IMG/VR virus record: IMGVR_UViG_3300045988_159115
Source: a virus
Length of the DNA: 64,000 bases
Reading direction: 5' to 3' (one strand)
Shown: positions 1 through 49,399 of the stretch, piece by piece
How the letters are laid out: the number at the start of each line of letters is the position of its first letter
How positions within the stretch are numbered: the stretch's first letter is position 1
Notes under the pieces: model-generated
Database searches by the model: none
Seen by the model: only the letters and a program-made list of their open reading frames with translations
What the model was told of the DNA's origin: nothing
Program-made: the position numbers and the translations under genes

Positions 1-240
1 GTCTTATAGGTGAATCCTGTATTTGCCATAAGCCCATTCTGATGAGTCATCTCACCAGAATAAAGCTGAGTGGAATCAGGAAGTACACCATAGAACTTCA
101 GACATGCAGACACGAAGCCAGAGCAATCAGAACGAGTCCGAATAGTACGTCCACCAATTGTGACGTTGACATATCTATTTGAACTGTATCCAACACCAGA
201 TCTTGCGATCTGCTTCTTTACTTCAATGACGATATCCATC
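1..240 (-). other. NlpC/P60- or CHAP-like Cys peptidase domain of the giant ORF (truncated by window edge)
   Basis: The sequence RTRSDCSGFVSACLKFYGVLPDS (Cys codon about 123-125) contains the DCSGFV catalytic-Cys motif typical of NlpC/P60-type peptidoglycan peptidases. The downstream His is outside the window. Confidence 0.45.
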
Positions 241-3200
241 CAGCGATCGCGATTGCTTCTACCACGGCCACCAACAACGCGACGAATGATATTACGGAAA
301 CTCTTACGATGGCCGGAACCACCATAAGGCTTGTAATCGTCAAACGTCCAAACTGCTGATGTGTTATTATTGAGCTCATCGGGAGACACTGCTCCAGAAT
401 ACTCAACGCCGCGAGGATCGTTAATGATAATATTGCCATTCGAATCAACGCCGTTTGCAACCACATAGTGGCCAGAATCAGTATAAGGAGAATTTCCATT
501 ACCGTTATCACGGCCAAGAAGCATGACAGGACCGTTGGAATTGCGAACCTTACTGACGATCTCAGAGGAAGACGGATTCCGTTCCATAGAAGAGCGTACG
601 CCATAAGCGCTTGCTGCATTCTGAACGAAATTCATATTCGTACCAGTTTCGTCACGGTCGCCAGTCTGCTGAGCAAGACGTGCAAGAGACACAGGATCAG
701 TGTGATTTGCAGAGACATCCGAAAGAACCATTGCCATAGCCGTCGGGCCACAGCCGGTATCAGACATTGTTGCAGATGCATCAGAACCATCAGCCTTAGA
801 GTAGGACTTCGATGCCCAACGAGAATCGTCCTGAGAATAATAAGTGCCACCATTCAGTGTATCAGGAGCAAGCCCACGACCACCGGATGTCTTACGGCGG
901 CCAGAGCCACCTTCAGTCTTGTTAATCTCTTTAACGTCATTATTGATCTGATCCCAATCAACACCGTTACCAGAACCACCATCTGTCTTCTTCTTACCAC
1001 GGATCCAATCCATGAGAGAAGTACCGATGGAGTTGATAGCGTTCTTAATGGTGTCTCCGATGCTGTTGAAAATTCGAGGAATACCTACTGTAATCCAAGA
1101 AGCAAGTTTAATGGCACCGCCAATAAACTTTTTGAGACCATTGTCTTTTGAGTTCGGCATTTCAGCCTTCTCGAATCCAGACCAAGACTTGCTAGGATCA
1201 GTATATTGCTTCAGAGTTGACTGATAAGCTGCAATATCCTTATCAATTCCACCAAGTCCGACTGCAGTGAGAGCCTTGTCGACAAGTCCGCCGATCTTAT
1301 TCATGGCATAATTATAACCAGTGACAATATACATCGGAGCTCTGGAAATCTTAACGATTGCACCAGATAAGAGGCCCTTAGTTTTATCCTTACCAGCAGA
1401 AAGGAATTTAGAAAAGTCGCCAGTCACAGCAGCGTCCCAAGACTCGCCAACACCAGTCTTAATTGCGTCAATCTGCTCTTGATGGCTATCAATGAATTCA
1501 TCAATCTTACCCTTAACGCCTCTGATAGCAAATGCAGGGAGAGATCCGATAAGGAACGGAAGCTTCAGAACACCACAGACTGCTCCAGAGATTCCAGCAA
1601 GAGGACCATCAAAGTCGATATTAGCGTTACCAATTGCAGAAGGATCACCCTTCACCATATTGACGCTATAATCGGCAAGATGCTTAGGAATTTCAGCAAT
1701 ATTACCTGCTGCTCCGCCAATAAACTCAGGAACTTTCTTAAGCAGGAAGTCTCCACCAACAGATCCAAGCTTGCCAATCAAATGACCGACAAACACTGCA
1801 ACCTTACCAACACCAAGTGTTGCTCCGATGATTCCGTGGAGAGGGTTGTTCGGATCGGAAGTATTGACTTTAGCCTTTGCATAAGACATGAAATCAATAT
1901 TTGGATCGTTGAAGTTCTGATTGATTGTGCGGAAACCTGTTACAAGTGCACTACCAGCATCACCAAGAGTAGTAGTAAGATTCTTTCCAAAATTACCAAA
2001 GAACTGCTTGGCAGAATTAAATCCGCCCTTAATCATTTCAATGGGTTTTGTAAGAAGTCCACTCTTCTGCTCAGTAGTATCCTCGTAGCGACCGTTCTCA
2101 CCAGTCTGTCCCTCGAATGCTCTAGCATCAAGCTTAGCTGTTCCCAGCTGCTTACCAGTTGTAGCATCGTATGCCGAGAAAGTACCATCACTGTTTTCAC
2201 GATACTCAGTATTGGACTGCTTATCGACGAAAACTCTCTGCTTCTTACCGACGAGTTTCTCACGAGCCTTGTCGCCAAAGCCCTTAAGACCCTTCTGAAG
2301 ACGAGAACCAAGTGTCTGATTCTTCTCATCATTATAGTCAGCAAACGACTGAATATTTGCGCCATACTCGCCATTCTTAGCACCCTCAGTGAATTGCTCC
2401 AAAGTAACGCTAGGATCGAGCAGGCCTGCTTTGATCATCTCATTATACTGAGACTCAAGGTTTGAACTCACATTGGCATCGTATGCTTCCTTAAGTTCAG
2501 TCTGACCAGCAGCCAGAGCAGCAAACTTATCGTCACCAGCCACCATCTGATAAATCAGAGTAGCCAGTTCAGTATACATATCAACGCCAGTAACAGAAAC
2601 GATCAACTCATTGACACAGTCAACGATACTACCAAATGTTGAACCACTGAATGCACCAAAGAGTCCAGCGATGATCATCATAGTAGCATCTGGCTGACTA
2701 GATGTGCGGAAAAGTCTCTTAGCACCAGAAACGCCATTGATAGCACCAAGAACCACCCAAGTAGATTCTTTTGCTGCATAACCAACAACTGTAGTTGCGA
2801 GACCAGCTGCTGTGCCGAGAATAGTTGCAATCTTAGCAGAAATCTTCTTAAAGTGCTTCTGGACACATCCGGTCGCACTAGACAGAAGTTTGGTAACCTT
2901 ACCAGGTTTGATTGAGCCGCCAAATCGAGCGCTTGCTTTCTCCATGATGCTAGAGAAGAATTTCTTCACAACGTCAATGACTTTTGTGATACCACTCTTC
3001 TCACTTGCAGCCATGATCTTATCAGCTGTTGTATTCGCAAACTTACCAACCTTCGATGCAACAGATGCTACATGGTCACCGTTATTGATGTTATCCTCCA
3101 TCATTCCTGTGAGGATTTCATTGGAGAAGGTTTCGTTCGATAATGCCTTACCAGCACCATACTTGAAACCATTCACTGCAGAAGAGGTAACCTCAAGGTA

Positions 3201-6200
3201 TTTATTCTTGATACCACTACCAATCTTATTCTTAAGACCAGAGACAGCTTTACCGGCTCTTGTATTAGCAAGAGCATTGCCGATGAATTTTCCACCCTTA
3301 CGAAGATCACCACCAAGGTTCTTGATGTTGTCAATTCCACCCTTCACCTTAGGAATAGCCTTCTTACCAGCCTCATAGATCGTGTTTGCGCCACCAGCAA
3401 CGCCTTGCGCGAGAAGCTTGGTACGAGCTCCAGTTTCGTTGTAAATATTACCGTCCTTATCATAGAGGAAACTCTTGATAGCGTCCGGAATATTACCAGT
3501 AAGAAGATTACCAACGGTGTTCTTCAAACCATCCAGTTCATCAGAAATGACATCTGCAGATGTTCTACCGTCACCGAGTCTTTCCTTTCCATACATATAG
3601 TCCGAAACAAGACGTTCTGCAGGATTCGTTGACTCGGAAGACCCATTGCCAGGATTTGCAAAGAGACTGATAAGTCTACCAAGAAGCTTCAGCACCATAG
3701 GAGCAAGGAGAATGAATGCACCTGTGATAATACCCTTCTTCGAGAAAATCGAATTCCAGATAGTATTATGAGAATGAATACCTTCGTTAATGGATTCCAT
3801 CAAACCAGTATTCTTCTTATCCTTTGCTTCCTGCTCAGCCTTTTCATCAACAGCAGCACGCTGAGCACGCTGTTCATCTGCTGTCTTACCCTTAGGAGCA
3901 GACTGATCCGGATTGATAGTTGCGTCACCGTAAGAAATCTCACCATCGGTAGTTTCCTCACTAGCAACGGTCTTACTAGGATCAATCGTAGCATTGGCTT
4001 TCAGTGCAGAAGTGATTGCGGTATTTGCACCAGCAAACGGAGAATTTGAATTTCCAATATTCGGTACCGAAATATTGGTAGGAGCCTTCACGGACGCATC
4101 CGTAGAAGTATAGGTTTTCGTGATATTGGTATCGGCATCTTCACGAGCAGTTTCCATATCACTAAATCCACCCTTAACGGTATCAAAGATACCACCGAGC
4201 AGATCACGGATATCCGCAAAGATACCTACGAGGCCAGTACGAGCAGAAGCATCATTCGGAATGACCTTCTCGCCACCAGCCATCTCACGAACTTCAGGAC
4301 CGCTGGTACCGACGACAGTTGCACCCTTATCGGTAACAACCATCTCTTCGCCTTCCTCACCGACATCGGCGGGACCCGGCTTAGCATTATCGGTACCATC
4401 AGCATAATGAGCACGCTTCCTCTTTGCTTCAAGCTCCTCTTTGCGTCTACGGCGACGTTCCTCAAGTGCACGATGTGCTGCTTCCTTTGCTTCGCGATTT
4501 GCTTTGACGCGATCAAGATACGCCTCATAGTTAATATCGCGTTGCTGTTTCATCTCATGACGAGTCTGATCGGAATCCAGCATCGTGCCATTCTTACGAC
4601 GGTCTTTACGACGCTGCTTATAATCTTTATTCGATTCTTTAGCGCCAGCACGAAGACCACCGATATTGGACAGAGCAACTTCAATACCGCCAAAGAACCC
4701 ATAGTCCTTCATGTAGTCAGAGAACTTCTTTTGACGATCCTTAGAAGACGACTTTGTTGCGCGATCACGTGCAGCTTCAGCAATCTTAATTTCAGCACCA
4801 TGATTTCCGTTCTCATCCTTATGAAGAAGCTCAATATTGCGATCGGTGTTACGATCAGTATATCCCTGAGCCTTACCTGTTGTAAAAGCTTCCGCCTTTG
4901 CTTCGTCTTTTGTAAGCTTAGGTTTACGGCCAAGAATAAAATCGAGCGCCTTATGAAGAATAGCATTCGTATCCTTCTGGACATCGAGCGATGCATCCTG
5001 GAATTTCTCAGTTTTGATCTGAGATTCAGTCTTGATGGCATCTCCCTTGAAACTGATATGCTCACCACGCTCAAGCGCAGCAGCTTTTGCAAATGCACGG
5101 TTTTCCTCAGTATCTTCCGATCTCTGATTCTTCGTGTACTTTGCAATCAGTCTCTGGTTATTAAGGAGGTCTTTGCGTTTCTGCCGACGCTCCTTAGCCA
5201 TATTCTTCTGACGTTCTTTTTTTTCCTTATTTAAACGAACTCTTGTCGCCCAAGGAAGACCCTTACCGGCATCTTTAATACTGCCATCAGGATTAAAGAG
5301 CATCTTGGAGCTAACGTCCTTCTTTTCCATTCCGTACTTTGTTGAATCCCAAACCTTACGGAAATAAGCTCCGAGACCACTACCCTCTTCGCGCTTCTCA
5401 GCTCCAAGACCAAAGAACTTACGACCCTTATCAATGATACCATTGATCCAAGTCATAGGATTCATGAAGTGAAGGATGTTCTTAACAGATTTTGTGATTG
5501 CGCCAGTAACCTGATCACGAACGTAAGTAACAGCAGACTTTGCAAGATCAACCACAGGACTCACAAGACGGCGCATACCGCCCTGAACCCAGCGAAGAGC
5601 ATCTTGTGCACTCTTGAAAGCAGTCTGAATCAGACGCATCGGCCAAGAATTCATGACGGCGTCTTTTACATCACGAAGAACCGAGATGCCAAAACGACCA
5701 ATATGAGCGACAGTGCCGATGATCTTATCATTAATGAATCCGAATGTCTTCTGAACTGCCTTAAACGGGAGAGAAACAGCAGTGCCAATAGCTTTTGCAG
5801 CAACACCGAGTGCCTTAGAGAATACACCAAAAGTAGTCTTAACTGCGAGACCGATCGGAGTAGTAATCGCCTTAATAGCGAGACCAACGCCATGACGAAG
5901 TGCAGTAGCCATGGGCGACAGCATTGTCATAACGAGATTGATCGGTGTAGAAATGATTGCTTTAGCAGCTCCCCAGATAGCATTACCAGCTGCAGTAGCT
6001 GCGGCAGTAACAGGCTGAAGAATCTTCTTCGTAGCATCGACCATTCCACCAAGGAAGTCTTCCTTAATGAATCGGCCGACATCTTTTGCAGTATTCCAAG
6101 CAAACGAAGTCAGACTACCAATCATGGACGATACAGCATCGCCAATCGGTTCCATGATCAGAGTGATCTTATTGAAGACGTCAAACTGAAGGAAATTCTT

Positions 6201-9200
6201 CGCGTCGTCAATGAAGTTTGCAGCAGCATTCTTGATAGGCTGGAATACGGAGACATTCAGAGCATTCTTAAACTGGCCAAGAATACCTTCTCGTTTTACT
6301 CCAGTCTCTTCATCAACTTTGCCGAACAGCCATTCATGGAAGTTATCCTTCTGAGCAAGAATAGCTGCACCAAGACCAAGAGATGCACCGAGAACAGGAC
6401 CGCCAACGAGAGTACCGAGTAAGCCGCCTGTGCCAAGGCCAATACCAAGCATACCAGCAAGCTTACCGCCAGAAACGCCACCATTGGATTCAGCATCACC
6501 AACGATGTTGCGCATCCACTTCTTGCCAAGAGTGACAATACCGAGCTGTCCGTTTTCAGCATCACCAAAAAGGAACTTCTGGAAAATTTCACTCTTTAAA
6601 ACAGTAGCGGATGCAAGACCCATGAGTGCGCCAGCAATAGGACCGCCGACGATAGTACCGAGGATACCACCACCAGTGATTGTACCAGTAACGGCACCTA
6701 CTGCAGCGCCGCCTGTTAAGAACTTTCCATGCTCATGGAAGAATTCTTGAGTTTTATCACTGATAAAGCCTTCGTGGTCTTCTGTACCAAAAAGCCAATC
6801 TTGGAATTTTTCAGACTTTGAAAGAATACCACCAGCAAAGCCAAGAAGAGCTCCGCCGATAGGACCACCGACGAGAGTACCGAGTAAACCGCCAGCAGCA
6901 ACGCCGCCAGCAGCACCAACGGCTGCGCCAGCCATTCCGGAAGGAAGCATCTCAGAGGCTTTCTCTTTGATAGAATCAATGACTTCTTGCTGAGTCTTCT
7001 CATCATCTTCGTCATCATTCGTACCAAAAAGAGCGTTCTTCCAACCAACTAATCCTTTACGTAAAGAATCTGCTACAGAAGATAATCCAGAGGTAGCCTT
7101 ATGAATAAGGCCTTCTTTTCCAGATTCTTCTTCGCCCTCTTTTTTCTCGCCAAAGAGACGAACCTCAATACCTTCTTTGATATGATTGACCATACCGGTA
7201 AGCTTACCCTTAACGGTATTCTTCATCTCTTCGTCATTGGCCTTCGGAACAGCAGTGCCATCTGCTGCAATGTAACCTTCACCTGTGATCATATGGCGCA
7301 GGCCAAAATATGATTCACGGATTCGGTTATTCACACCAGAAAGAATACCATTCTGCTTATAGCCATTCTCGTCCTTGCTACCAAAGAGAGTTTCTTTTAA
7401 AGGAGTAAGGAATTTCTCAGAGATATATTCTCCGGCCTTAGTAAACGAAGCACCAAGACCCTTCATCATAGCGTCCCAAGCAGCATCAGAATCTCCATTC
7501 ATGATACCAGCAAGGACGCCACTCGCTTTCTGGAAGAAAGTAGCAGTAATACCACCAAGCTGACCTTTTTCAGGTTCAGGCTGAACGATATTCGGCTGAG
7601 CAGCAAAGAGCTTTTCGTAGTCGTCTGCTGTCTGCGGGCCCTCAGGTTCAGGAGGATTGACAAAATGATTCAATACGGGAGCCTGGCTCGCTGCTTGTTG
7701 TGCAGAAACGAGCAGACCGTGAGCATTCTGCTTAAACCCTTCCATCAACGGATGATTCGGTACATATACACCAGTTTTCTGGTCTCTATGGTACATCGTT
7801 CCGTCAATGCCCTTTGTCTCGTCATTATACGGGATTCTGATATCGTCGTCAATATCTACGCCGTCCAGCTTACGACGAATCTGGACGAAAATACCACGAC
7901 GAAGAATATCCCGAATGTCAGTGACAAGAGAAGGAAGAGAAGCTGCCGGGCTCGGATTAACAGGACGAATCTCTCCACCCTGCTTAATCGTCTCAACAGC
8001 ACGGTCATTGATCATCTGATCAATATTACGGCCATCAAAAATCTTACCGACGTTATTATGCTCACCCGCTTCGTTGTAACCGGTAACAGATTTGACTCGG
8101 TTTGCAGATGCTCTCTGCTTTGCATAGTTTGCGGAAATTAATGCTCCATCATTGGTTTTCACCATATTCTGGAACATGCCAAGATAAGCATTCTTTACCC
8201 GCTCATCAGCAGTCTCAAGACTATTGATAAGAGTCTCTCGATTCAGGGCATCTTCAAGACGAAGCGGACCATTGATCTGCTCCATCTTGAGAAACAGCTC
8301 AGGAAGACTCTTTAAGAATGATTCTTGGAGAGCTGGATCAACTGACCCAAGGTTTGCAGCATAAATCTTTGCTTTCTTACCAAAATCACTCTTGTTAAAT
8401 TCATTGACCGTATCATACGTGAGGTTATCCGTGATCTCATCACGCATCTGTTTTACGGTCTTATATCTGCCTTCCTCCCAATCATATGCCTGAATATTCT
8501 TATCGAAATCACTCGCGTTCTTACCAGTAACAGCAATTGCGATCTGCTGTAAATATCCGGTAGACTCACGAAGATATTTCGGAATAATTTCAGTAATGGC
8601 ATGGTTGGCCATTCCGTTATACGGAACCGGAGTCGCGTCAACTCTCTTGAGGTCAAAATCTTTGGTACGCTTTGTTCTCGTACCAAAGATAGCACCAATT
8701 GTACGCTTACCTTCACCAATGAGGGTTGCATCATCTTCACCCCAAGCACCAATACGCTCAAGGACAGAAGGAATGAATGCTTTCAAAGTATTATCAAACT
8801 GCTTCATAGCAGATTTGGTAATCTTCGGAATCATTGCATCAATACCCATCTTAAGAGCAGCGCCTACAGGATTTGCTGTAAGAGCTTCCTTGTTCTCAAG
8901 AAGAGTATTTGCCATACCAACCACGTTACCGAGTGCGGTTGCAGATTGGTCAATCTTTTTGATATTCTGAGTAACGTACTTGACATAATTACCCAGATCG
9001 AATCCGCCTTCCATGGTGACAAGGTCCTTCGAAGTGATCTCGTCTTTCCCACCCTTGTACGGATCTTCCTGCTTAGGAGTCATTTGCTCATAGTATGCGA
9101 TAGAAGCATCTATGAACTTCGTCATATTCTCTGTCTGATAATTCAGTAATGCAGAGATGTTAGAATTAATTGACGTTAACTGACCAATTACTTCTTGACC

Positions 9201-9803
9201 GATCTCAGCATTTTTTGCCAAAGAAATAGACGTAAGCGAAACCATCGCATCAACTTGTGCCTTAGCAGCAGTAAGTTGATACTCGGATTGCTTTTGGATT
9301 AATCGAACGGTCGCATCATTGCTTCCATTAGACTGCGTTTGATTAACTACGTTATTATTGATTTGGACATTTGTGTCGTCATCAATATCTGAGAAAGAAA
9401 CGTCTCCAGAAGAATCAAAGAGTTTATCAATATCATCTTCTGAAAATTGATCTTTCTGGTCACCATAACCACCCATGAGCGCTTTTTCTTCACGCTCTTT
9501 ATTATAGAGATTACCAGATTTCAAGTCTTGCAGCGAGTTATCAATTACCTGCTGGGCGAATTTAACTGCCGGAGTACCTTTGATCATGGTAATTACTTTT
9601 CCGGAGGTTAACTTTGAATCTCGAATGGTCTTTGCAACTTCCGATGAAGATTGTGATACCGACTTAATAGTAGAAGCGGTTGACGGCATGATGTCTTTGA
9701 TGACTTCAGTGCCAGCCAAACCGAGACTATTAAGAGCATTTCGTAACCAAGGAGAATTTAACTTCGTCCTGGTTACCGTGATATCGGTATTTTTCTTAGC
9801 CAT
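1..9803 (-). CDS. giant virion-associated protein (tape-measure/ejection-like) with C-terminal cell-wall hydrolase domains; C-terminus runs off the left edge (at least 3267 codons in window)
   Basis: My own minus-strand translation from ATG 9803-9801 (SD-like GAAAGGAG about 13 nt upstream) reads MAKKNTDITVTRTKLNSPWLRNALNSLGLAGTEV... and meets no stop down to position 1. It is absent from the track only because its stop lies outside the window. Every track ORF between 218 and 9843 is a short alternative-frame ORF inside it. It contains basic/coiled-coil stretches, three glycine-zipper TM modules and two Cys-peptidase-like domains. Confidence 0.85.
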   Translation of the reverse strand, partial: MAKKNTDITVTRTKLNSPWLRNALNSLGLAGTEVIKDIMPSTASTIKSVSQSSSEVAKTIRDSKLTSGKVITMIKGTPAVKFAQQVIDNSLQDLKSGNLYNKEREEKALMGGYGDQKDQFSEDDIDKLFDSSGDVSFSDIDDDTNVQINNNVVNQTQSNGSNDATVRLIQKQSEYQLTAAKAQVDAMVSLTSISLAKNAEIGQEVIGQLTSINSNISALLNYQTENMTKFIDASIAYYEQMTPKQEDPYKGGKDEITSKDLVTMEGGFDLGNYVKYVTQNIKKIDQSATALGNVVGMANTLLENKEALTANPVGAALKMGIDAMIPKITKSAMKQFDNTLKAFIPSVLERIGAWGEDDATLIGEGKRTIGAIFGTRTKRTKDFDLKRVDATPVPYNGMANHAITEIIPKYLRESTGYLQQIAIAVTGKNASDFDKNIQAYDWEEGRYKTVKQMRDEITDNLTYDTVNEFNKSDFGKKAKIYAANLGSVDPALQESFLKSLPELFLKMEQINGPLRLEDALNRETLINSLETADERVKNAYLGMFQNMVKTNDGALISANYAKQRASANRVKSVTGYNEAGEHNNVGKIFDGRNIDQMINDRAVETIKQGGEIRPVNPSPAASLPSLVTDIRDILRRGIFVQIRRKLDGVDIDDDIRIPYNDETKGIDGTMYHRDQKTGVYVPNHPLMEGFKQNAHGLLVSAQQAASQAPVLNHFVNPPEPEGPQTADDYEKLFAAQPNIVQPEPEKGQLGGITATFFQKASGVLAGIMNGDSDAAWDAMMKGLGASFTKAGEYISEKFLTPLKETLFGSKDENGYKQNGILSGVNNRIRESYFGLRHMITGEGYIAADGTAVPKANDEEMKNTVKGKLTGMVNHIKEGIEVRLFGEKKEGEEESGKEGLIHKATSGLSSVADSLRKGLVGWKNALFGTNDDEDDEKTQQEVIDSIKEKASEMLPSGMAGAAVGAAGGVAAGGLLGTLVGGPIGGALLGFAGGILSKSEKFQDWLFGTEDHEGFISDKTQEFFHEHGKFLTGGAAVGAVTGTITGGGILGTIVGGPIAGALMGLASATVLKSEIFQKFLFGDAENGQLGIVTLGKKWMRNIVGDAESNGGVSGGKLAGMLGIGLGTGGLLGTLVGGPVLGASLGLGAAILAQKDNFHEWLFGKVDEETGVKREGILGQFKNALNVSVFQPIKNAAANFIDDAKNFLQFDVFNKITLIMEPIGDAVSSMIGSLTSFAWNTAKDVGRFIKEDFLGGMVDATKKILQPVTAAATAAGNAIWGAAKAIISTPINLVMTMLSPMATALRHGVGLAIKAITTPIGLAVKTTFGVFSKALGVAAKAIGTAVSLPFKAVQKTFGFINDKIIGTVAHIGRFGISVLRDVKDAVMNSWPMRLIQTAFKSAQDALRWVQGGMRRLVSPVVDLAKSAVTYVRDQVTGAITKSVKNILHFMNPMTWINGIIDKGRKFFGLGAEKREEGSGLGAYFRKVWDSTKYGMEKKDVSSKMLFNPDGSIKDAGKGLPWATRVRLNKEKKERQKNMAKERRQKRKDLLNNQRLIAKYTKNQRSEDTEENRAFAKAAALERGEHISFKGDAIKTESQIKTEKFQDASLDVQKDTNAILHKALDFILGRKPKLTKDEAKAEAFTTGKAQGYTDRNTDRNIELLHKDENGNHGAEIKIAEAARDRATKSSSKDRQKKFSDYMKDYGFFGGIEVALSNIGGLRAGAKESNKDYKQRRKDRRKNGTMLDSDQTRHEMKQQRDINYEAYLDRVKANREAKEAAHRALEERRRRRKEELEAKRKRAHYADGTDNAKPGPADVGEEGEEMVVTDKGATVVGTSGPEVREMAGGEKVIPNDASARTGLVGIFADIRDLLGGIFDTVKGGFSDMETAREDADTNITKTYTSTDASVKAPTNISVPNIGNSNSPFAGANTAITSALKANATIDPSKTVASEETTDGEISYGDATINPDQSAPKGKTADEQRAQRAAVDEKAEQEAKDKKNTGLMESINEGIHSHNTIWNSIFSKKGIITGAFILLAPMVLKLLGRLISLFANPGNGSSESTNPAERLVSDYMYGKERLGDGRTSADVISDELDGLKNTVGNLLTGNIPDAIKSFLYDKDGNIYNETGARTKLLAQGVAGGANTIYEAGKKAIPKVKGGIDNIKNLGGDLRKGGKFIGNALANTRAGKAVSGLKNKIGSGIKNKYLEVTSSAVNGFKYGAGKALSNETFSNEILTGMMEDNINNGDHVASVASKVGKFANTTADKIMAASEKSGITKVIDVVKKFFSSIMEKASARFGGSIKPGKVTKLLSSATGCVQKHFKKISAKIATILGTAAGLATTVVGYAAKESTWVVLGAINGVSGAKRLFRTSSQPDATMMIIAGLFGAFSGSTFGSIVDCVNELIVSVTGVDMYTELATLIYQMVAGDDKFAALAAGQTELKEAYDANVSSNLESQYNEMIKAGLLDPSVTLEQFTEGAKNGEYGANIQSFADYNDEKNQTLGSRLQKGLKGFGDKAREKLVGKKQRVFVDKQSNTEYRENSDGTFSAYDATTGKQLGTAKLDARAFEGQTGENGRYEDTTEQKSGLLTKPIEMIKGGFNSAKQFFGNFGKNLTTTLGDAGSALVTGFRTINQNFNDPNIDFMSYAKAKVNTSDPNNPLHGIIGATLGVGKVAVFVGHLIGKLGSVGGDFLLKKVPEFIGGAAGNIAEIPKHLADYSVNMVKGDPSAIGNANIDFDGPLAGISGAVCGVLKLPFLIGSLPAFAIRGVKGKIDEFIDSHQEQIDAIKTGVGESWDAAVTGDFSKFLSAGKDKTKGLLSGAIVKISRAPMYIVTGYNYAMNKIGGLVDKALTAVGLGGIDKDIAAYQSTLKQYTDPSKSWSGFEKAEMPNSKDNGLKKFIGGAIKLASWITVGIPRIFNSIGDTIKNAINSIGTSLMDWIRGKKKTDGGSGNGVDWDQINNDVKEINKTEGGSGRRKTSGGRGLAPDTLNGGTYYSQDDSRWASKSYSKADGSDASATMSDTGCGPTAMAMVLSDVSANHTDPVSLARLAQQTGDRDETGTNMNFVQNAASAYGVRSSMERNPSSSEIVSKVRNSNGPVMLLGRDNGNGNSPYTDSGHYVVANGVDSNGNIIINDPRGVEYSGAVSPDELNNNTSAVWTFDDYKPYGGSGHRKSFRNIIRRVVGGRGRSNRDRWMDIVIEVKKQIARSGVGYSSNRYVNVTIGGRTIRTRSDCSGFVSACLKFYGVLPDSTQLYSGEMTHQNGLMANTGFTYK
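405..850 (-). other. peptidase C39-like (papain-fold Cys peptidase) domain of the giant ORF
   Basis: The sequence reads YYSQDDSRWASKSY...SDTGCGPTAMAMVLSD (Cys codon about 750-752) ...GHYVVANGVDSNGNIIINDP (His codon about 468-470). This is the typical Q...W / CGPT / GHY..V / DP layout of the C39_2 family, recalled from memory. Confidence 0.6.
6321..6893 (-). repeat. three tandem glycine-zipper membrane modules inside the giant ORF
   Basis: R1 (6786-6893) is GGLLGTLVGGPIGGALLGFAGGILSKSEKFQDWLFG. R2 (6564-6671) is GGILGTIVGGPIAGALMGLASATVLKSEIFQKFLFG. R3 (6321-6428) is GGLLGTLVGGPVLGASLGLGAAILAQKDNFHEWLFG. Spacing is 222 and 243 nt. The repeat is also visible at DNA level (ggaccNccNacgaNagtaccgag). 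Confidence 0.85.
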
Positions 9804-9884
9804 AGTGGCTCATCCACTCCTTTCTATTTTGAGAGTTGAGTAGATCGCAATACTCATTAATACAATGATTAACCGTTACAAGTC

Positions 9885-17414: not shown

Positions 17415-18005
17415 TTATGCACCCTTGATCAGGCACATAGTGGTAGACTTGATATTACCACCAGCCCAAGCTGTGTTGTAATCTGCCATAGAAGCGAAAG
17501 TTTTGAAGCTTTCAGATGCGGCAGTGGCGGAAGATTTTGCTTCGGCTGCGATACTCTTAGCAGAGTCAGCTGTGCTCTTTGCAGTATTAGCAACGGACTT
17601 CGCTGAGTCCGCTGCTGTCTTAGCAGCATTTGCAGTTGTAACCGCATTGGATGCTGCCTTAGACGCGGCGCTTGCTGAATCCTTTGCTGTTGTAGCATTA
17701 GACATTGCTGTGTTAGAGTTAGTCAGCGCTGTGTCAGCAGTACTCTTTGCAGTATTTGCAGTCTTAGTAGCTGCATCTGCTGCGGTCTTAGCTGCATTTG
17801 CTGTGGAGTTGGCAGTGTTTGCTGTAGACTGAGCTTTGCTGGTAGCAGTATCCATGCTGGTGATCTTGGAAGCCAGCGTAGTACCTGTGCCGTTCATGAT
17901 AACGAGATTGCTCAGGGTACGAGGCAGGAACGGGATCTTACCATTGACGTTACCAGAAGAATCGAACGTCTTTTTATACAGCACACCCATTAAGGCATTT
18001 GCCAT
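17415..18005 (-). CDS. Ala/Thr/Ser-rich heptad-repeat fibre-like protein (196 aa)
   Basis: The central part of the protein, about 120 residues, consists of 7-residue units (TANTAKS TADTALT NSNTAMS NATTAKD SASAASK AASNAVT TANAAKT AADSAKS VANTAKS TADSAKS IAAEAKS). Confidence 0.7.
   Translation of the reverse strand: MANALMGVLYKKTFDSSGNVNGKIPFLPRTLSNLVIMNGTGTTLASKITSMDTATSKAQSTANTANSTANAAKTAADAATKTANTAKSTADTALTNSNTAMSNATTAKDSASAASKAASNAVTTANAAKTAADSAKSVANTAKSTADSAKSIAAEAKSSATAASESFKTFASMADYNTAWAGGNIKSTTMCLIKGA
17495..17861 (-). repeat. heptad-periodic coding repeat
   Basis: 21-nt periodicity at DNA level (gcNgtcttagcNgcatttgc variants), about 16 heptads. Confidence 0.8.
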
Positions 18006-18033
18006 AGTTTAATTTACCACCTTTCGTTTGAGT

Positions 18034-19014
18034 TTACATCACACGAGCGAGTTCACTGTAGAACCTATTGATATTCTTCGTGTTCTTTATGATATCGTTT
18101 AAAGCCGTCTGACTCACCAAGAATGTGCTCATGACAACGTTCGTAATCACAAAGAATACATAAGGAAGATAATCAATGCTTAAGATAGATGACCCGTGGT
18201 AGGTCTTGATGAATCGTTCGATATAATATCTCAAATTCAGATCACTCATTCGAGGAGACAGCGATTTTACAAACTCTAAGAGATTTGCAATCGTTTTAAT
18301 CTCCATTTTAGAATAAGTGGCATCAAGTGCATCCAAATCAAACTGCTGAATATACTTCAGATCACTGGATGCGTAATTTGAGACAAGACCCGTATTAGGA
18401 TACTCCCATACACATTCCAGATAGAATCTCTTGATACAGTAGCACACTTTATCGTAAAGAACCTTATCCAGAGTGAGAGCATATTCCTTATTCAGGATTC
18501 TTGCCATCATCTCAGTATAGACGGAAGCTGTTGTCATCATCAGCTCTGCATTCTTCATAACCTTTACCGGATCGGTTTGAAGTTTCAGAGCGATATATGC
18601 ACCCTCCATCAGGCCGTAGAGCTGTTTTGCAGGAATGACAAGAATGGAATCGTCTTTAATCGTTGCAAACGCATTGATAAAGATAGTAGAAACGATCTTA
18701 CCATCACTTTTTCTACGTACGATGAAAGGCATGGCAACACCGACCTTTTCTGTATTATTCCAGATAATTTCGATATCGCCATTGTTAAATGCTTCCAGTA
18801 CTTTCTGAGATAGAGGGGAAATACCAGCACCACGACGAATGATCGCATACTGATCTTCAATGTAAGATTTATCAAGCAGAACGCCAGAGGATAAATACTT
18901 GACGATTTTATCTACAACGCCATTCGCTTGATTAAACGTCTTATAGACAAGAGAATCTTCCATTGTATTTTCACAGACGTAGTCGGCATCTGTGAGAAAG
19001 CGTGAAATATCCAT
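18034..19014 (-). CDS. hypothetical protein (326 aa), probably late/structural by context
   Basis: AAAGGAG lies 6 nt upstream of ATG 19014, and motif M2 precedes the gene. Confidence 0.7.
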   Translation of the reverse strand: MDISRFLTDADYVCENTMEDSLVYKTFNQANGVVDKIVKYLSSGVLLDKSYIEDQYAIIRRGAGISPLSQKVLEAFNNGDIEIIWNNTEKVGVAMPFIVRRKSDGKIVSTIFINAFATIKDDSILVIPAKQLYGLMEGAYIALKLQTDPVKVMKNAELMMTTASVYTEMMARILNKEYALTLDKVLYDKVCYCIKRFYLECVWEYPNTGLVSNYASSDLKYIQQFDLDALDATYSKMEIKTIANLLEFVKSLSPRMSDLNLRYYIERFIKTYHGSSILSIDYLPYVFFVITNVVMSTFLVSQTALNDIIKNTKNINRFYSELARVM

Positions 19015-23304: not shown

Positions 23305-24049
23305 AATTGTCTTCAATGACGCCAATTGCTCTTAAAATCTTCATGGGATTCGTTTTATTATAATTATCTTCCATCCGAATGAAATCACTAATAACTTCTT
23401 CATGCTCTTTGGAGAAGGCAACTCCAACTTTCATATCCTTATAGGTAACATCTGTCGTTACAACACTAAGAGTTTGAGTGCTTCCAATTTCAAATGGAGT
23501 AAAAGAAGCTAATATGATTTCTTTATGGATTCCATAATGCGCTTTGTAATAGCTCACATTGGAATCTGTTTTTAAGAGCTCATCAATCACAAAGTCATTC
23601 ATCACAGCACTATCAATACCAAGCTCATTGAGATAATTCATGGTATCTCCGTATTCAGTGTGCTCGTAGATGACTTTGATTGTGATCCAGTAAAGACTAT
23701 AGTATTTCTTTAGACATGCGCTATCAGGATAAATCGTATCGTATAATTCATAATACGATACGAAAGTCTCATTCATCTGATTGCGACTATAATTCGATGA
23801 GGGTTTCGTAAGACGAGACACCTCATCTTCTTTTAAGGCGGTTAGCCAGACTTGATAGAATTCTTCATCTGTCATAGAGTTTCGGATACTCTCTACATCA
23901 CGCATAGTAAGAGATTCGGAATCTTTGACAGCACTTTTCAGAAAAGGGATACTCACACTAACTGCATTCACTTTCATAAAACCATACCCGAAGATGATAA
24001 GATATACGATAAGGACGACCAAGGCATATGGCCAAATTCGTTTGTTCAT
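23303..24049 (-). CDS. membrane-anchored hypothetical protein (248 aa), paralog of 20269-21060
   Basis: SD is AAAGGAG. There is an N-terminal TM segment WPYALVVLIVYLIIFGYGF. Shared motifs are FYQVWLTALKEDEVS and F.SYYELYDTIYPDS. Confidence 0.7.
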   Translation of the reverse strand: MNKRIWPYALVVLIVYLIIFGYGFMKVNAVSVSIPFLKSAVKDSESLTMRDVESIRNSMTDEEFYQVWLTALKEDEVSRLTKPSSNYSRNQMNETFVSYYELYDTIYPDSACLKKYYSLYWITIKVIYEHTEYGDTMNYLNELGIDSAVMNDFVIDELLKTDSNVSYYKAHYGIHKEIILASFTPFEIGSTQTLSVVTTDVTYKDMKVGVAFSKEHEEVISDFIRMEDNYNKTNPMKILRAIGVIEDN

Positions 24050-24117
24050 GATAGGATCTCCTTTGTGAAAAAGATACGGTATGACATTTAGAATTGTGTC
24101 ATACCGTATCTAATTTA

Positions 24118-25275
24118 TCAGCCTACCACAGATTCAACGATCTGAAGATAGATATTGATGTCGTTCTTGAGAGCTTCGATTTCCTCATCCTGGAAAGGAG
24201 TTGCAACGAAATCCTTCACTTTTGCCATGGACATTTGCACGGTGTAAGTGATCGGAGTACCGTTGAAGATGAAGTTGAACTTATTCAGATCAACTGTCTG
24301 AGAGGAATCCAGCTCAACCTTAAACGAGTTGATGTAGTTAATCGCACTGGAAATGCGTGCATTATACTTCGTGATGATATCATCACTGACGTTGACGTTT
24401 TCCTTCTTATAGACGAGATTCAGATTCTCGTACTCTACGACTTTCCAAGAATCCCGTGCTCCAAAGAAAATCTGAGAGAAGAGATCGAATGTCGTATTGA
24501 ATACGAAGCCGATCGTGATATCTTCCGGGAAAACATACGGAGACGATTCCTGCGAAGCTTTGATACGATCAACCTGAAGAGCGAGGTTTTTCGGATCGGT
24601 TCCGAGGAAGTTCAGCTGGCCAAATGGAGTATTGACGTATGCGATATTGCAGATAGCATCGGAGTAGTCAAAGAAGTTCTTCTTTGCCTCGAACATCGAG
24701 ACTGCATCAACAGCCTTCATATGAGAAAGCATATATGCATAGAAGTTCTGTACGAATCGACCAGCACAGTTGGATTCAACAGCTTCATCGCCAGCATACT
24801 CTGTCCACGTTTTTGAAGTATGCTTTTCGTTATCAGTGGTCGTGAAGACTTCATTTACAACCGCACCAGTAACTGCCATGATAGCAGCGCCATTGAAGAT
24901 AGCCAGGACATGATGCTTCATGCAGCCAACGGGCAGTACATTATTGACATTGCACTTATTAGCGTCGATGTCTGAGTCGTGAATCATTTCGCCATGGATA
25001 GACAGAATCGCATCCAGCTTCTGATGAACGTCCATCTGCTTCTCTTTATTGACGAAATTCTCGAACTTCATGTCCAGTTCACGAAGTTCAGAACAGAAGG
25101 TTTTCAGATAGAACTTCTCCATGGTGGTAATGTCTTCCATCTCAATGCTGAGCATTGCATGCTGGACGTACTTACCAAAATCGGAGCCGAATCCGGACTT
25201 ATTCAGTTTTGCTGCATCCTTGTAGCCTTCAAACAAACGCTGAAAACCACAAGCTCTTACCTTTTTGATAATCAT
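24118..25275 (-). CDS. hypothetical protein (385 aa), last gene of the gmk operon
   Basis: SD is GAGGTGA, and an ATGA overlap joins it to the upstream gene. No catalytic motif recognised. Confidence 0.7.
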   Translation of the reverse strand: MIIKKVRACGFQRLFEGYKDAAKLNKSGFGSDFGKYVQHAMLSIEMEDITTMEKFYLKTFCSELRELDMKFENFVNKEKQMDVHQKLDAILSIHGEMIHDSDIDANKCNVNNVLPVGCMKHHVLAIFNGAAIMAVTGAVVNEVFTTTDNEKHTSKTWTEYAGDEAVESNCAGRFVQNFYAYMLSHMKAVDAVSMFEAKKNFFDYSDAICNIAYVNTPFGQLNFLGTDPKNLALQVDRIKASQESSPYVFPEDITIGFVFNTTFDLFSQIFFGARDSWKVVEYENLNLVYKKENVNVSDDIITKYNARISSAINYINSFKVELDSSQTVDLNKFNFIFNGTPITYTVQMSMAKVKDFVATPFQDEEIEALKNDINIYLQIVESVVG

Positions 25276-25466
25276 TCGCTTTCACCTCGTAATTCAGTAT
25301 CTTTTACTAGAATCTTGCATGTGTAGATTCCGTTTTCGAACGTTGCATTGTCACAGTGGCTGCAAGTTTCTGTAGTCTGCTTATCAGAGCAGAACTGCTT
25401 ATATACCTCATTTGCAGAGCAGCAGCCAAGCGGACAATCATAACCATGAATATTAGTGGTTGGCAT
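25272..25466 (-). CDS. small Cys-rich protein (64 aa, 7 Cys)
   Basis: The sequence reads DCPLGCCS...FC...TCSHC...TC. The gene overlaps both neighbours (14 nt and 4 nt), suggesting translational coupling. Confidence 0.6.
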   Translation of the reverse strand: MPTTNIHGYDCPLGCCSANEVYKQFCSDKQTTETCSHCDNATFENGIYTCKILVKDTELRGESE

Positions 25467-26079
25467 ATTCTTTCATCCTCTCTTTTCGATCAGTATCAAT
25501 GATATCATCCATGTATAGAATGATATTGCGTGTAGTATTAAATGCATACCCGTCGTTATTGAAAGTATTTTCAGGACGGATTCCAGCATCATATAATACT
25601 TTTTGAGTATATCTCTCCTCGTCAGATTGGAATCTTCGCTTGAACTCTTCGAAGTTCGGATGCTCAAGACGCATTTCACGCATTTCAAGTCTCTTATAGC
25701 GAATACCACTGTCGATGGAGATATAGATGGGATAGACTGTGATTCCAGGAACTGCCATGCAGGTTGGGATCACATCCGGCGTCATGGTTGTGATGGAATA
25801 ATTTGATTCAGGAAATCCTGTACCATATTTCCATACGTCACCCTGTGCCTGAGTGTATTTTCTATGTTCCATGAGGAGGTTGTGCTGAATCATCAGTTCG
25901 AATTGGTCATCCGTAATGAAGAAGTATTCATCAGAATTCTTTTCATTACTTCTCATAGGACGAGTTGTGTAGCTCTGGAGTTTTTCGATATCTTTTCCTT
26001 TTACTTCTCGGATCATGTTGAGAATTGTGGATTTTCCACTACCAGTTTTTCCGAGAAGAACGAATACAAGTTTATTCAT
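25453..26079 (-). CDS. gmk: guanylate kinase-like nucleoside monophosphate kinase (208 aa)
   Basis: There is a P-loop LLGKTGSGKST and the motif YTTRPMRSNEKNSDEYFFITDDQF, matching the guanylate kinase signature TTR.pR..E..G.dY.F. The start is set at ATG 26079, preceded by GGAGGAAAATAAT. Confidence 0.75.
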   Translation of the reverse strand: MNKLVFVLLGKTGSGKSTILNMIREVKGKDIEKLQSYTTRPMRSNEKNSDEYFFITDDQFELMIQHNLLMEHRKYTQAQGDVWKYGTGFPESNYSITTMTPDVIPTCMAVPGITVYPIYISIDSGIRYKRLEMREMRLEHPNFEEFKRRFQSDEERYTQKVLYDAGIRPENTFNNDGYAFNTTRNIILYMDDIIDTDRKERMKEYANH

Positions 26080-26184
26080 ATTATTTTCCTCCGGCATTGA
26101 TGAAGTTTAGAATTCTGTCTTAAGAATAGTTTCTCAGCAAAAACGTAATATTAACGGTTCCACCATAAGAAAGGAGAAATATCT

Positions 26185-26589
26185 ATGGAAACGATTATCA
26201 CCATGCTGGGCAGTGACGTTTGGACTGTCCTCGTTACCCTCATTTCCATCGTTCTTGTCTTCGTTGGCATTATCGCATCAAAGGTTCTTCTGCTTCTTTC
26301 AAAGAAGCTCGGAATCGACGTTGATGCTCAGACCATGAAGACGATTCAGGCTCTTGTCAATAAGCTGGTTCAGGCAATGAATCAGAGTGTTGTCAATGAC
26401 CTGAAGAAAGCGAATCCGGATGGTAAGCTGACTGCTGAGCAGAAGGCACAGGTATTCAATGATGTACGAAATGATTTGGAGAAGTCTCTGACTGATGAAG
26501 AGAAGCAGTATCTGATTGATAAGTTTAAAGATCTTGATACTGCACTGAAGGCATTGATTGAGTCCTCTGTTGGTGAGAACCATAAGTAA
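26185..26589 (+). CDS. putative holin (LL-H-like), 134 aa
   Basis: There is a single N-terminal TM segment (VWTVLVTLISIVLVFVGIIASKVLLLL) followed by an amphipathic helical tail ending ...LKALIESSVGE. The layout matches LL-H family holins as I recall them. Confidence 0.5.
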   Translation: METIITMLGSDVWTVLVTLISIVLVFVGIIASKVLLLLSKKLGIDVDAQTMKTIQALVNKLVQAMNQSVVNDLKKANPDGKLTAEQKAQVFNDVRNDLEKSLTDEEKQYLIDKFKDLDTALKALIESSVGENHK

Positions 26590-33170: not shown

Positions 33171-33199
33171 TTAAAATAATTAAAGGAGTGAAATCGAAA

Positions 33200-35482: not shown

Positions 35483-35504
35483 TTCCCAGAAAGGATGAGA
35501 AACG

Positions 35505-36191
35505 TTGATATACTTTATGAGTGGTAAAACGCTCATCACAAAGTATGTCGTAGAAGAAAAAGCCGAGGATATCTTTGAGACCAATTTCGTGTTGGCATCT
35601 CAAAGAGTCCGTCGTGGGACGATCGCGAATAATAGTAAGTTTAAAGAGCAAATCATAGACGGGTCTATTGGATTCTATCCGGACATGGAAATGATTCTGG
35701 ATTATAAAGACTATAAAGATCCTGAATATGAAAGGAAGTATAAGGAGTCTCTTCATAGAATGCTTCCGACACTTGCTCTTATGATCAAGGCACATTATGA
35801 ATCTGATCTTACGATTGTATTTGTATGCGCCGAGTGCGAGAAGAAGTATCGGCATCTCAAGCTCATTCGTGATTTCGTGAGAGAAGAATTCCTCGGATTT
35901 GAAATCTACGACTATAAGAAGACTGGGCACATGAAAGGAGGTGGTGCTCTTACTCAAAACGACATTGACATCCTGATTCTCTGCGATGATGTAATTAAGG
36001 GTGCCAAGGAAGAGGACAAGATGCGTAGTATGATGACGCGTCGAGGACGTAAAATGTACGTGCAAAGTTGTACCACGAAGCAGTTGAAGAATGAATTGAA
36101 AGCCAGAGATGAGTATTATTCTGATATGAATCACGCAGAAATGGCTAGTAAACTTCTTGAACTGCTTGAGGCACAATACAACAGAAGATAA
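35505..36191 (+). CDS. hypothetical protein (228 aa), TTG start (alternative ATG 35517)
   Basis: AAAGGA lies 9 nt upstream of the start. No motif recognised. Confidence 0.6.
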   Translation: MIYFMSGKTLITKYVVEEKAEDIFETNFVLASQRVRRGTIANNSKFKEQIIDGSIGFYPDMEMILDYKDYKDPEYERKYKESLHRMLPTLALMIKAHYESDLTIVFVCAECEKKYRHLKLIRDFVREEFLGFEIYDYKKTGHMKGGGALTQNDIDILILCDDVIKGAKEEDKMRSMMTRRGRKMYVQSCTTKQLKNELKARDEYYSDMNHAEMASKLLELLEAQYNRR

Positions 36192-46746: not shown

Positions 46747-46773
46747 ATGAAAAACGAAAGGACGATATGAATG
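46747..46773 (+). promoter_or_regulatory. conserved leader / 7-codon uORF MKNERTI, with TGA abutting the topoisomerase B start
   Basis: The sequence ATGAAAAACGAAAGGACGATATGAATGG is 27/28 identical to 49373-49400. The uORF stop at 46768-46770 is immediately followed by ATG 46771. Confidence 0.55.
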
Positions 46774-49194: not shown

Positions 49195-49256
49195 CAGAAA
49201 AGTAATCCGCGATGGGTTATTGGTTTCCATAATTCAAACTCTCTTTAAAATATAAA

Positions 49257-49372: not shown

Positions 49373-49399
49373 ATGAAAAACGAAAGGACGACATGAATG
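49373..49399 (+). promoter_or_regulatory. conserved leader / 7-codon uORF MKNERTT, with TGA abutting the topoisomerase A start
   Basis: The sequence is ATGAAAAACGAAAGGACGACATGAATGG. The uORF stop at 49394-49396 is immediately followed by ATG 49397. Upstream there is an SD (AGGAG, 49340-49344) followed by a start-stop ATGTAA (49353-49358). Confidence 0.55.

Follow-up and report, generated by a model that had tools for sequence, protein, structure and literature searches.

The left end of the 64,000-nucleotide stretch of viral DNA analysed here (IMG/VR virus record IMGVR_UViG_3300045988_159115, referred to below as the window) raises the question of what is encoded by an open reading frame (ORF) that fills the first 9.8 kb of the minus strand and runs off the end of the sequence. 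The answer favoured here is that the gene encodes a tail-lumen tape-measure/ejection-lysin protein of an uncultivated jumbo myophage from the phiKZ/AR9/phiR1-37 supergroup, a reading to which a probability of about 0.7 is assigned. The evidence includes the condition of the reading frame itself, homology with proteins of cultured jumbo phages, the order of neighbouring genes, and the arrangement of domains along the protein.

The frame between positions 1 and 9803 comprises 3,267 sense codons without a single stop, and the probability of a stop-free run of this length at the local base composition is about 3e-86. The ATG at 9803 is preceded by an in-frame TGA two codons upstream and by the Shine-Dalgarno sequence AGGAG 13 nt upstream. 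In comparison with a 93% identical relative, the ratio of nonsynonymous to synonymous substitution rates (dN/dS) is 0.11 overall and between 0.03 and 0.17 in each block of 400 codons. Because it is low in all blocks, the whole frame is a real and constrained gene, as the original prediction had proposed when it traced a giant ORF from ATG 9803 to the edge. That prediction also observed that the gene is missing from the ORF list, which gives only short, mutually overlapping ORFs in this region; this is correct, and the reason is that the list omits ORFs running past the end of the sequence. The many short plus-strand ORFs over the giant gene are antisense shadows. Of its 3,267 codons, none is CTA, 20 are TTA and 21 are TCA, and because these codons are nearly unused, one plus-strand frame contains just 41 stops in 9.8 kb. 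Throughout the window, long spurious ORFs that reach 300-600 aa are found opposite real genes; examples are the minus-strand ORF 33743-35584 against the plus-strand ORF 33188-35482, and 47737-49230 on the minus strand against gyrB.

The closest homologue, referred to as P0001, is a protein of 3,941 aa that is 93% identical and is encoded on a contig of 261,862 bp (L002). The window fragment aligns to residues 1-3300 of P0001, and therefore about 640 C-terminal residues and the stop codon are expected to lie beyond the edge. How far the gene extends leftwards can thus be estimated from this relative: about 3,941 aa in total, with a PF18013 lysozyme domain in the missing part. Uninterrupted orthologues with 93-97% identity are present on at least seven independent contigs, which, together with the constraint in every 400-codon block, disposes of the earlier concern that the frame might be a fusion of several genes. 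IMG/VR contigs of 50, 145, 255 and 259 kb encode N-terminal regions 97% identical to the window protein. A megablast search with the 9.8-kb gene against isolated phages gave no match.

Protein-level comparisons do connect the gene to cultured phages. In tblastn searches, aa 19-590 match gp203 of AR9/PBS1 and gp263 of BpSp. A profile of the N-terminal domain (about 600 residues, built from 100 homologues), which matches the window protein with E = 1.5e-220 over aa 5-603, also matches the cultured orthologues near full length (about 570 residues): AR9 gp203 (3e-70), BpSp gp263 (8e-72), JD-Fnp1 gp176 (8e-42) and phiR1-37 g083 (5e-34). The match to phiKZ gp181 (5e-12) is partial and covers residues 468-620, which correspond to a confidently modelled subdomain. 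SPN3US gp239 is not matched directly by the N-domain profile and is linked through its homology to phiKZ gp181 (1.5e-29) and through a conserved neighbouring gene. Because the window ends inside the giant gene, the downstream gene order was read on the 93% identical contig L002, where a 612-aa protein comes next after the giant gene and RusA comes after that. The 612-aa protein is homologous to AR9 gp204, BpSp gp264, phiKZ gp182 (3e-15) and SPN3US gp238 (4e-17), and the order of giant gene, virion protein and RusA recurs in AR9, BpSp, phiR1-37 and JD-Fnp1. By homology and gene order, the ORF is an orthologue of phiKZ gp181, SPN3US gp239, AR9 gp203, BpSp gp263, phiR1-37 g083 and JD-Fnp1 gp176.

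Within this family the window protein is of ordinary size, and it is the cultured members that represent the short end. In a large protein collection, 100 homologues were found; they measure 2,359-5,477 aa, and the contigs that carry them reach 272 kb. A profile search of 1.84 billion cluster representatives gave 2,010 matches at E <= 1e-3 and 1,336 at E <= 1e-30, with the N-domain always at the extreme N-terminus. Among the best 150 of the 2,010, 134 are at least 2,000 aa long (median of those 3,605 aa, maximum 5,717 aa), 42 reach at least 3,941 aa and 10 at least 5,000 aa. The earlier description of the protein as several-fold longer than typical tape measures therefore needs qualification: it is much longer than usual, but no outlier among its own relatives. 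The annotation of the family is inconsistent. The gp181-type domain occurs in 198 phage records under names such as tail fiber, endolysin, tape measure, lysozyme-domain protein and peptidoglycan hydrolase; further GenBank labels among the orthologues are 'papain-like cysteine protease' for JD-Fnp1 gp176 and, for AR9/PBS1 gp203, 'tail tape measure protein' or 'lysis domain protein'. JD-Fnp1 gp176 (L008 7933-17013), whose phage has a tail of 335 nm, has gone unrecognised as a tape-measure candidate; the phiKZ gp181 gene is located at L011 11335-18048.

Two published results for these orthologues bear on the location of the protein in the virion. SPN3US gp239, called the tape measure by its authors, is among the 28 proteins missing from tailless DNA-filled particles, in which the virion RNA polymerase (RNAP) subunits are retained (PMC5105663). 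phiKZ gp181 has been characterised as a virion-associated peptidoglycan hydrolase with muralytic activity (PMC5380687). Taken together, the absence of gp239 from tailless heads and the muralytic activity of gp181 favour a location in the tail rather than in the head. A preprint on the virion structure of phage Goslar makes no mention of a tape measure. Every orthologue carries a C-terminal wall hydrolase, which is a VgrG3-like lysozyme in AR9 and BpSp, an SLT domain in phiR1-37 and a C39 domain in JD-Fnp1.

The architecture of the part preceding the enzymes also bears on the function. An AlphaFold2 (AF2) model of aa 1-633 is nearly all helix, including one helix of 79 residues, at a mean predicted local distance difference test score (pLDDT) of 51; the confident subdomain lies at aa ~440-600. 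Farther along are three tandem glycine-zipper modules of about 77 aa each, each of them a glycine-rich hairpin of the form ...LLGTLVGGPxxGAxLG... followed by F..WLFG. This block, which the original prediction had recognised as three glycine-zipper transmembrane modules and which spans aa 950-1161, is conserved in 90-98 of 99 relatives. The predicted helical N-terminal region and the transmembrane-like zippers, which recall other tape measures, are counted in favour of a tape-measure function. An Ala/Val/Ile-rich amphipathic block follows, with two weaker copies closer to the C-terminus. Self-BLAST of the window protein detected no internal repeats, whereas profile searches did detect the repeated modules. 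JD-Fnp1 gp176 and phiR1-37 g083 each contain several copies of the amphipathic module, and phiKZ gp181 contains a single one (4e-6); a tblastn search with the conserved block after the zippers found no match in phages. The amphipathic block is an ancient repeated module and may be the true 'ruler' unit.

The two basic stretches quoted in the original prediction, ERRQKRKDLLNNQR (aa 1538-1551) and EERRRRRKEELEAKRKR (aa 1781-1797), are present within a Lys/Arg/Glu-rich region with 18-30 Lys and Arg per 100 residues and scarce Pro, which from its composition would be a helical spacer. An acidic, low-complexity stretch at aa 1850-2010 separates it from the second hydrophobic, Gly-rich half, in which transmembrane-like segments are found at aa 2019-2037, 2325-2343, 2376-2394, 2655-2673 and 2735-2753 and a conserved 'mid' block at aa 2273-2464. 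The order of modules is identical in all 100 relatives, and the spacers between them vary. Cysteine is nearly absent, with about 8 residues among the 3,941 of P0001, the first of them only past residue 2300. Among these few are the C39-like domain's catalytic Cys and the one in the D-C-S-G motif of the second hydrolase described below. Such scarcity is consistent with a protein that threads the tail tube and acts outside the cell.

The C-terminal part carries the enzymes. Two Cys-peptidase-like domains had been predicted here. The first is a C39-like cysteine peptidase with the candidate catalytic residues Cys 3018 (in GCGPTA), His (in GHYVV) and Asp (in NDP), which are kept in 137, 138 and 130 of 140 family domains, respectively. 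In P0001 the profile PF03412 reaches 25.2 bits, above its cut-off of 22. Foldseek comparison of the modelled domain returned PCAT1 (E = 1e-5), ComA-PEP at a template modelling (TM) score of 0.79 and a root-mean-square deviation of 2.4 A, and LahT150; more distant fold matches were papain-like toxins, pseudomurein endoisopeptidase and staphopains. By its predicted papain-like fold, its triad and its profile matches, the domain is assigned to Peptidase C39 (double-glycine, clan CA), here inside a phage structural protein and not as the N-terminal domain of an ABC exporter. The second domain fits the prediction only in part and is better described as an ELLD/NlpC-P60-like Cys-His hydrolase. It carries D-C-S-G-F at aa 3226-3230, and DCSG together with a His (D-C-S-G ... 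G-H) is invariant in the aligned relatives. PF25309 ELLD ('endolysin-like domain') matches 10 of 19 relatives (best E = 9e-8), and the NlpC/P60 profile PF00877 reaches E = 0.0063 and 16.9 bits, below its cut-off of 23. An AF2 model of P0001 2960-3400 built from 19 sequences (mean pLDDT 77.6) contains two confident domains joined by low-confidence linkers, and the second hydrolase is modelled at pLDDT 88-97. A search of the PDB by sequence gave nothing meaningful for the second hydrolase segment, nor did one with the whole protein.

Outside the window, PF18013 Phage_lysozyme2 (phage tail lysozyme) is found at P0001 3473-3650 (E = 2.7e-24), followed by a tail of about 280 residues. Among the BFVD neighbours of the enzyme region, the best are pieces of large proteins from gut viromes that bear the labels 'morphogenesis protein 1 ... 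hydrolase' and 'tail tape measure'; Lysin A is also among the neighbours. The PF18013 lysozyme, which lies in the C-terminal part of P0001 (3200-3941; L002 19598-21823), shares about 41% identity with endolysins from Faecalibacterium and Acutalibacter phages. There is a hint in these sequences that the host may be a Clostridia-type (Oscillospiraceae-type) Gram-positive gut bacterium.

The original prediction of a tape-measure or DNA-ejection protein carrying wall hydrolases is thus supported by the N-domain homology, the conserved downstream genes and the C-terminal hydrolases, and a mechanism may be proposed on this basis. A few copies of the protein, probably three, would be built into the tail tube during assembly, and the long helical and spacer parts would help to set or fill the length of the tail. 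Contraction of the sheath would expel the protein through the tip of the tube. The C39-like peptidase, the ELLD/NlpC-P60-like hydrolase and the PF18013 lysozyme could then digest the thick peptidoglycan, while the glycine-zipper modules may insert into the cytoplasmic membrane and form a conduit for DNA. The GG[R/S/K/N]G linkers between the enzymes would serve as flexible joints or as processing sites.

Several observations weigh against the tape-measure/ejection-lysin assignment. PHROGs gave no family for the whole protein, and Pfam recognises C39_2 only and no tape-measure profile. The N-domain has no relative in the PDB, either by sequence in a profile search or by fold; the Foldseek matches of its model were coiled-coil and filament structures at E > 1 and were discarded, the model being of low confidence. 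Models span about 1,070 of about 3,940 residues, and for the central 1,800 residues helicity is read from composition alone. The ORFs upstream of the giant gene have no family matches and include no tail-chaperone pair or other conserved gene, and they do not resemble the genes that precede the orthologues in AR9, BpSp, phiR1-37, phiKZ or SPN3US. The missing tail chaperones weigh little, because gene order in jumbo phages is scattered. The two other points concern the ruler function: across the family, variation in length follows the C-terminal part that bears the enzymes (r = 0.83) more closely than it follows the spacer (r = 0.58), and Staphylococcus jumbo phages have two separate proteins of about 2,000 aa and a tail of 233 nm. 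Because of both, total length is a poor ruler.

The length of the tail can nevertheless be estimated from cultured phages. The available values are 1,925 aa and 200 nm for PBS1/AR9, about 1,990 aa (a length taken from the related phage DC4) and 233 nm for MarsHill, 2,553 aa and 383 nm for phiR1-37, and 3,026 aa and 335 nm for JD-Fnp1; phage G, with 2,893 aa and 450 nm (PMC8570332), is set beside them but not counted among the orthologues. Protein and tail length correlate with r = 0.81 (n = 4 cultured phages), at 1.0-1.5 A per residue. Extrapolation to 3,941 aa gives a tail of about 410-590 nm, with the regression at about 500 nm, and if the same ratios are applied to the roughly 2,970 residues preceding the enzymes, the arithmetic gives about 300-450 nm. 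The orthologue calibration would thus place the tail, with considerable uncertainty, at roughly 300-590 nm. That protein length determines tail length is at most suggested by these values.

One alternative, given less weight, is that the protein is a tail-associated ejection/lysin protein whose size does not set tail length, and that the tail is an ordinary one of 200-300 nm. The extra 2,000 or so residues relative to AR9 would then be membrane modules and enzymes accommodated in the tube or baseplate, possibly equal to the 'TMP' and 'tail lysin' genes of Staphylococcus jumbo phages fused into one. In MarsHill/DC4 the 'TMP' gene (1,990 aa) adjoins the 'tail lysin' gene (1,962 aa), whose product carries PF18013 and PF00877, and the MarsHill tail measures only the 233 nm given above. 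In the window protein, conservation rises and a hydrophobic segment starts at aa ~2010-2040, the length variation of the family lies mainly in the C-terminal part, and the spread of 1.0-1.5 A per residue among orthologues points in the same direction. Volume is an argument on the other side: if three copies and a 4-nm bore are assumed, a trimer of the 3,941-aa chain (about 1,570 nm3) would occupy 50-63% of the lumen if the tail measured 200-250 nm, compared with 20-31% in the calibrated phages. JD-Fnp1 and phiR1-37, with their large proteins, have long tails. The tblastn searches retrieved no detectable similarity to the Staphylococcus genes, although the queries did not recover those phages at all. 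A payload that leaves tail length unaffected is regarded as less probable than the favoured reading, in which the protein would help to set or fill the tail.

A further proposal, which would add to the tape-measure role and not replace it, is that the protein is a self-processing polyprotein. The C39-type peptidase would cut the GG[R/S/K/N]G linkers during assembly or infection and thereby free or unlatch the wall hydrolases, and perhaps C-terminal fragments. P0001 contains eight GG[S/R/K/N/T]G motifs between residues 2975 and 3897, which bracket every enzyme domain, whereas block shuffles preserving local composition give 1.9 +/- 1.3. Of the 419 motifs in 100 relatives, 80% fall within the last three length deciles, unlike plain GG dipeptides, which peak in the zipper region. 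A motif lies upstream of 64% of C39 domains (median distance 9 aa) and shortly downstream of 57%, and all 19 aligned relatives, at 34-52% identity, retain the GGxG that follows the C39 domain. In the AF2 model of P0001 the motifs fall in the low-confidence linkers between confident domains. The nearest folds of the C39-like domain, PCAT1, ComA and LahT150, are double-glycine peptidases, and its triad is invariant. Precedent is provided by the Tal protein of TP901-1, which is proteolytically processed at a Gly-rich motif immediately preceding its first catalytic domain (PMC11409707).

Other points weigh against self-processing. Gly-rich linkers are common flexible joints. There is no double-glycine-leader-like pattern upstream of the motifs, and JD-Fnp1 gp176 has two C39 domains and a single motif. 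Motif density, which speaks for self-processing, is higher in proteins with a C39 domain than in those without (1.12 against 0.30 per 1,000 aa, p = 4e-4), but phylogeny and the differing numbers of enzyme domains confound this comparison. In mycobacteriophage Lysin A, C39-like domains act as peptidoglycan peptidases (PMC3314691). The GGxG linkers beside a double-glycine-type peptidase may indicate self-processing, and the proposal is offered tentatively. Even bolder, and doubtful as a whole, is the combination in which a self-cleaving virion polyprotein releases wall hydrolases at the infection site and members of 4,000-5,700 residues specify contractile tails of 0.4-0.8 micrometres, beyond any measured.

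The remaining explanations fare worse. T7 gp16-type ejected core proteins combine membrane segments with a muralytic domain, and both are present here. A protein that is packaged in the head along with the DNA, like T7 gp16 or the phiKZ inner body, would be consistent with this combination, with the position of the JD-Fnp1 gene next to the portal gene, and with that of the phiKZ and SPN3US genes next to virion RNAP genes. The SPN3US orthologue is nevertheless absent from tailless, DNA-filled heads, which do contain the RNAP subunits, and orthologue length correlates with tail length. The internal virion protein considered in the original prediction is accordingly disfavoured and must be regarded as improbable. 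An artefact, whether of genes fused by a frameshift error or of a chance open frame, has the unusual size as its sole support and is effectively refuted already by the constraint in each block, the unbroken orthologues, the identical module order in 100 homologues, the ~2,000 clusters matching the N-domain profile and the existence of cultured-phage orthologues of 1,797-3,026 aa.

Comparison with known systems clarifies what is particular to the proposed tape-measure/ejection-lysin protein of the window. AR9 gp203, PBS1 gp95 and BpSp gp263 (Takahashivirus) share with it the N-terminal ~570 aa at 24% identity, hydrophobic Gly-rich segments, a C-terminal hydrolase, and a downstream region with a gp204-like virion protein, RusA and a gp211-like protein. 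They are, however, half its size (1,797-1,925 aa), with a single VgrG3-like lysozyme and no C39/ELLD/PF18013 cassette, one or two hydrophobic segments in place of the triple zipper and five segments found here, and essentially no GGxG. phiKZ gp181 and SPN3US gp239 (Chimalliviridae) share part of the N-domain, the amphipathic module, the following gene (gp182/gp238) and a C-terminal lytic domain; they differ in length (2,237-2,372 aa), in having one transglycosylase/lysozyme domain and in their Gram-negative hosts, and phiKZ gp181 has no transmembrane segment at the hydropathy threshold used. JD-Fnp1 gp176 (Fusobacterium) and phiR1-37 g083 (Yersinia) are similar in the full-length N-domain, the zipper and amphipathic modules, and the virion protein and RusA encoded downstream, and the tails of both phages are long and contractile. 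The former (3,026 aa) has two C39 domains and lacks ELLD, lysozyme and GGxG punctuation, whereas the latter, annotated as 'putative tape measure tail fibre protein' (2,553 aa), has an SLT domain.

Two other proteins can be likened by description. Phage G gp183 is a very long helix-rich tail protein with C-terminal glucosaminidase and M23 domains from a jumbo myophage of a Gram-positive host (PMC8570332), but its gene comes after frameshifted tail chaperones and belongs to a canonical tail module, unlike the situation in the window. The Tal proteins of TP901-1 and Tuc2009 have a Gly-rich motif right before the catalytic wall-degrading domain of a tail protein (PMC11409707); they are siphophage tail-tip (gp27-like) proteins, not tape measures, and have no C39 peptidase.

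The protein is thus a new, uncultured addition to the known gp181/gp203-type tape-measure/tail-lysin proteins of jumbo myophages, distinguished from its cultured relatives by large size, a cassette of three enzymes and conserved GGxG punctuation next to a double-glycine-type peptidase. The open frame, its selective constraint, the homology, the gene order, the domain identities and the motif statistics are shown directly, whereas the position in the tail lumen, the ruler role, the membrane channel, self-processing and the host are inferred. An inconsistently annotated core gene of the phiKZ/AR9/phiR1-37/JD-Fnp supergroup is now tied together. Its uncultured relatives routinely encode proteins of 3,000-5,700 aa, most of which exceed the 2,893-aa protein of phage G, the longest characterised tape measure in the literature consulted. 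Should protein length govern tail length in these phages too, tails of 0.3-0.8 micrometres would be expected; if it does not, the tape-measure rule fails here and the tube would carry a payload of enzymes and membrane modules. The GGxG punctuation provides a testable idea of how a multi-enzyme cassette could be deployed against thick Gram-positive walls, and the cassette may be a source of modular lysins. The features of the gene and of its surroundings are collected in Table 1.

Table 1. Location of the giant gene, its parts and other features in the window (aa numbering refers to the window protein).
Feature	Position	Strand	Basis
Giant ORF, 3' end cut by window edge	1..9803	-	translation, P0001 comparison, dN/dS
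Start context: TGA 9810-9812 and AGGAG 9817-9821	9810..9821	-	sequence
N-terminal family-defining domain, aa 5-603	7995..9791	-	profile matches, AF2
Three tandem ~77-aa glycine-zipper hydrophobic modules, aa 950-1006, 1026-1080, 1112-1161	6321..6956	-	composition, profile
Ala/Val/Ile-rich amphipathic block, aa 1166-1411	5571..6308	-	profile
Lys/Arg/Glu-rich basic region, aa 1421-1850, including ERRQKRKDLLNNQR and EERRRRRKEELEAKRKR	4254..5543	-	composition
Second hydrophobic/Gly-rich half, aa 2011-2961	921..3773	-	composition, conservation
Weaker copies of amphipathic block, aa 2223-2370 and 2752-2961	2694-3137, 921-1550	-	profile
Three GG[S/R]G motifs, aa 2942, 2965, 2974, in linker 5' of C39-like domain	873..980	-	motif scan
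C39-like cysteine peptidase, aa 2983-3140	384..857	-	Pfam PF13529 E = 5e-12
Two GG[S/R]G motifs, aa 3161, 3178, in linker between hydrolase domains	261..323	-	motif scan
Second Cys-His hydrolase, N-terminal part, aa 3179-3267, cut by edge	3..269	-	ELLD / NlpC-P60-like
196-aa ORF (tail-fibre PHROGs) and neighbouring 326-aa ORF (virion structural protein)	17415-19014	-	PHROGs
1,229-aa ORF	38835-42524	+	PHROG virion structural protein
Tubulin/FtsZ-family protein (PhuZ-like?)	43679-44824	+	adjoins gyrase genes
Complete gyrase B and gyrase A genes	46771-49194, 49397-51763	+	

The remainder of the window encodes a tubulin, gyrase B and A, an AAA ATPase, a UvsX-like recombinase, a Dda-like helicase, virion structural proteins and a tail-fibre-like protein, and this gene content, as judged from the sequence, is that of a jumbo phage. 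The position of the tubulin gene beside the gyrase genes is typical of such phages. As in other jumbo phages, structural genes are scattered among replication genes, as can be seen from the PHROGs matches of the 1,229-aa ORF and of the 196-aa and 326-aa ORFs. The 764-aa ORF at 33188-35482 on the plus strand has no Pfam or PHROGs match, and no tRNAs were found in the 64 kb. GC skew is negative over 1-24 kb and positive from 26 kb. The change of sign at ~24000-26500 coincides with the switch from minus- to plus-strand genes and marks a divergent transcription boundary or a replication-related switch.

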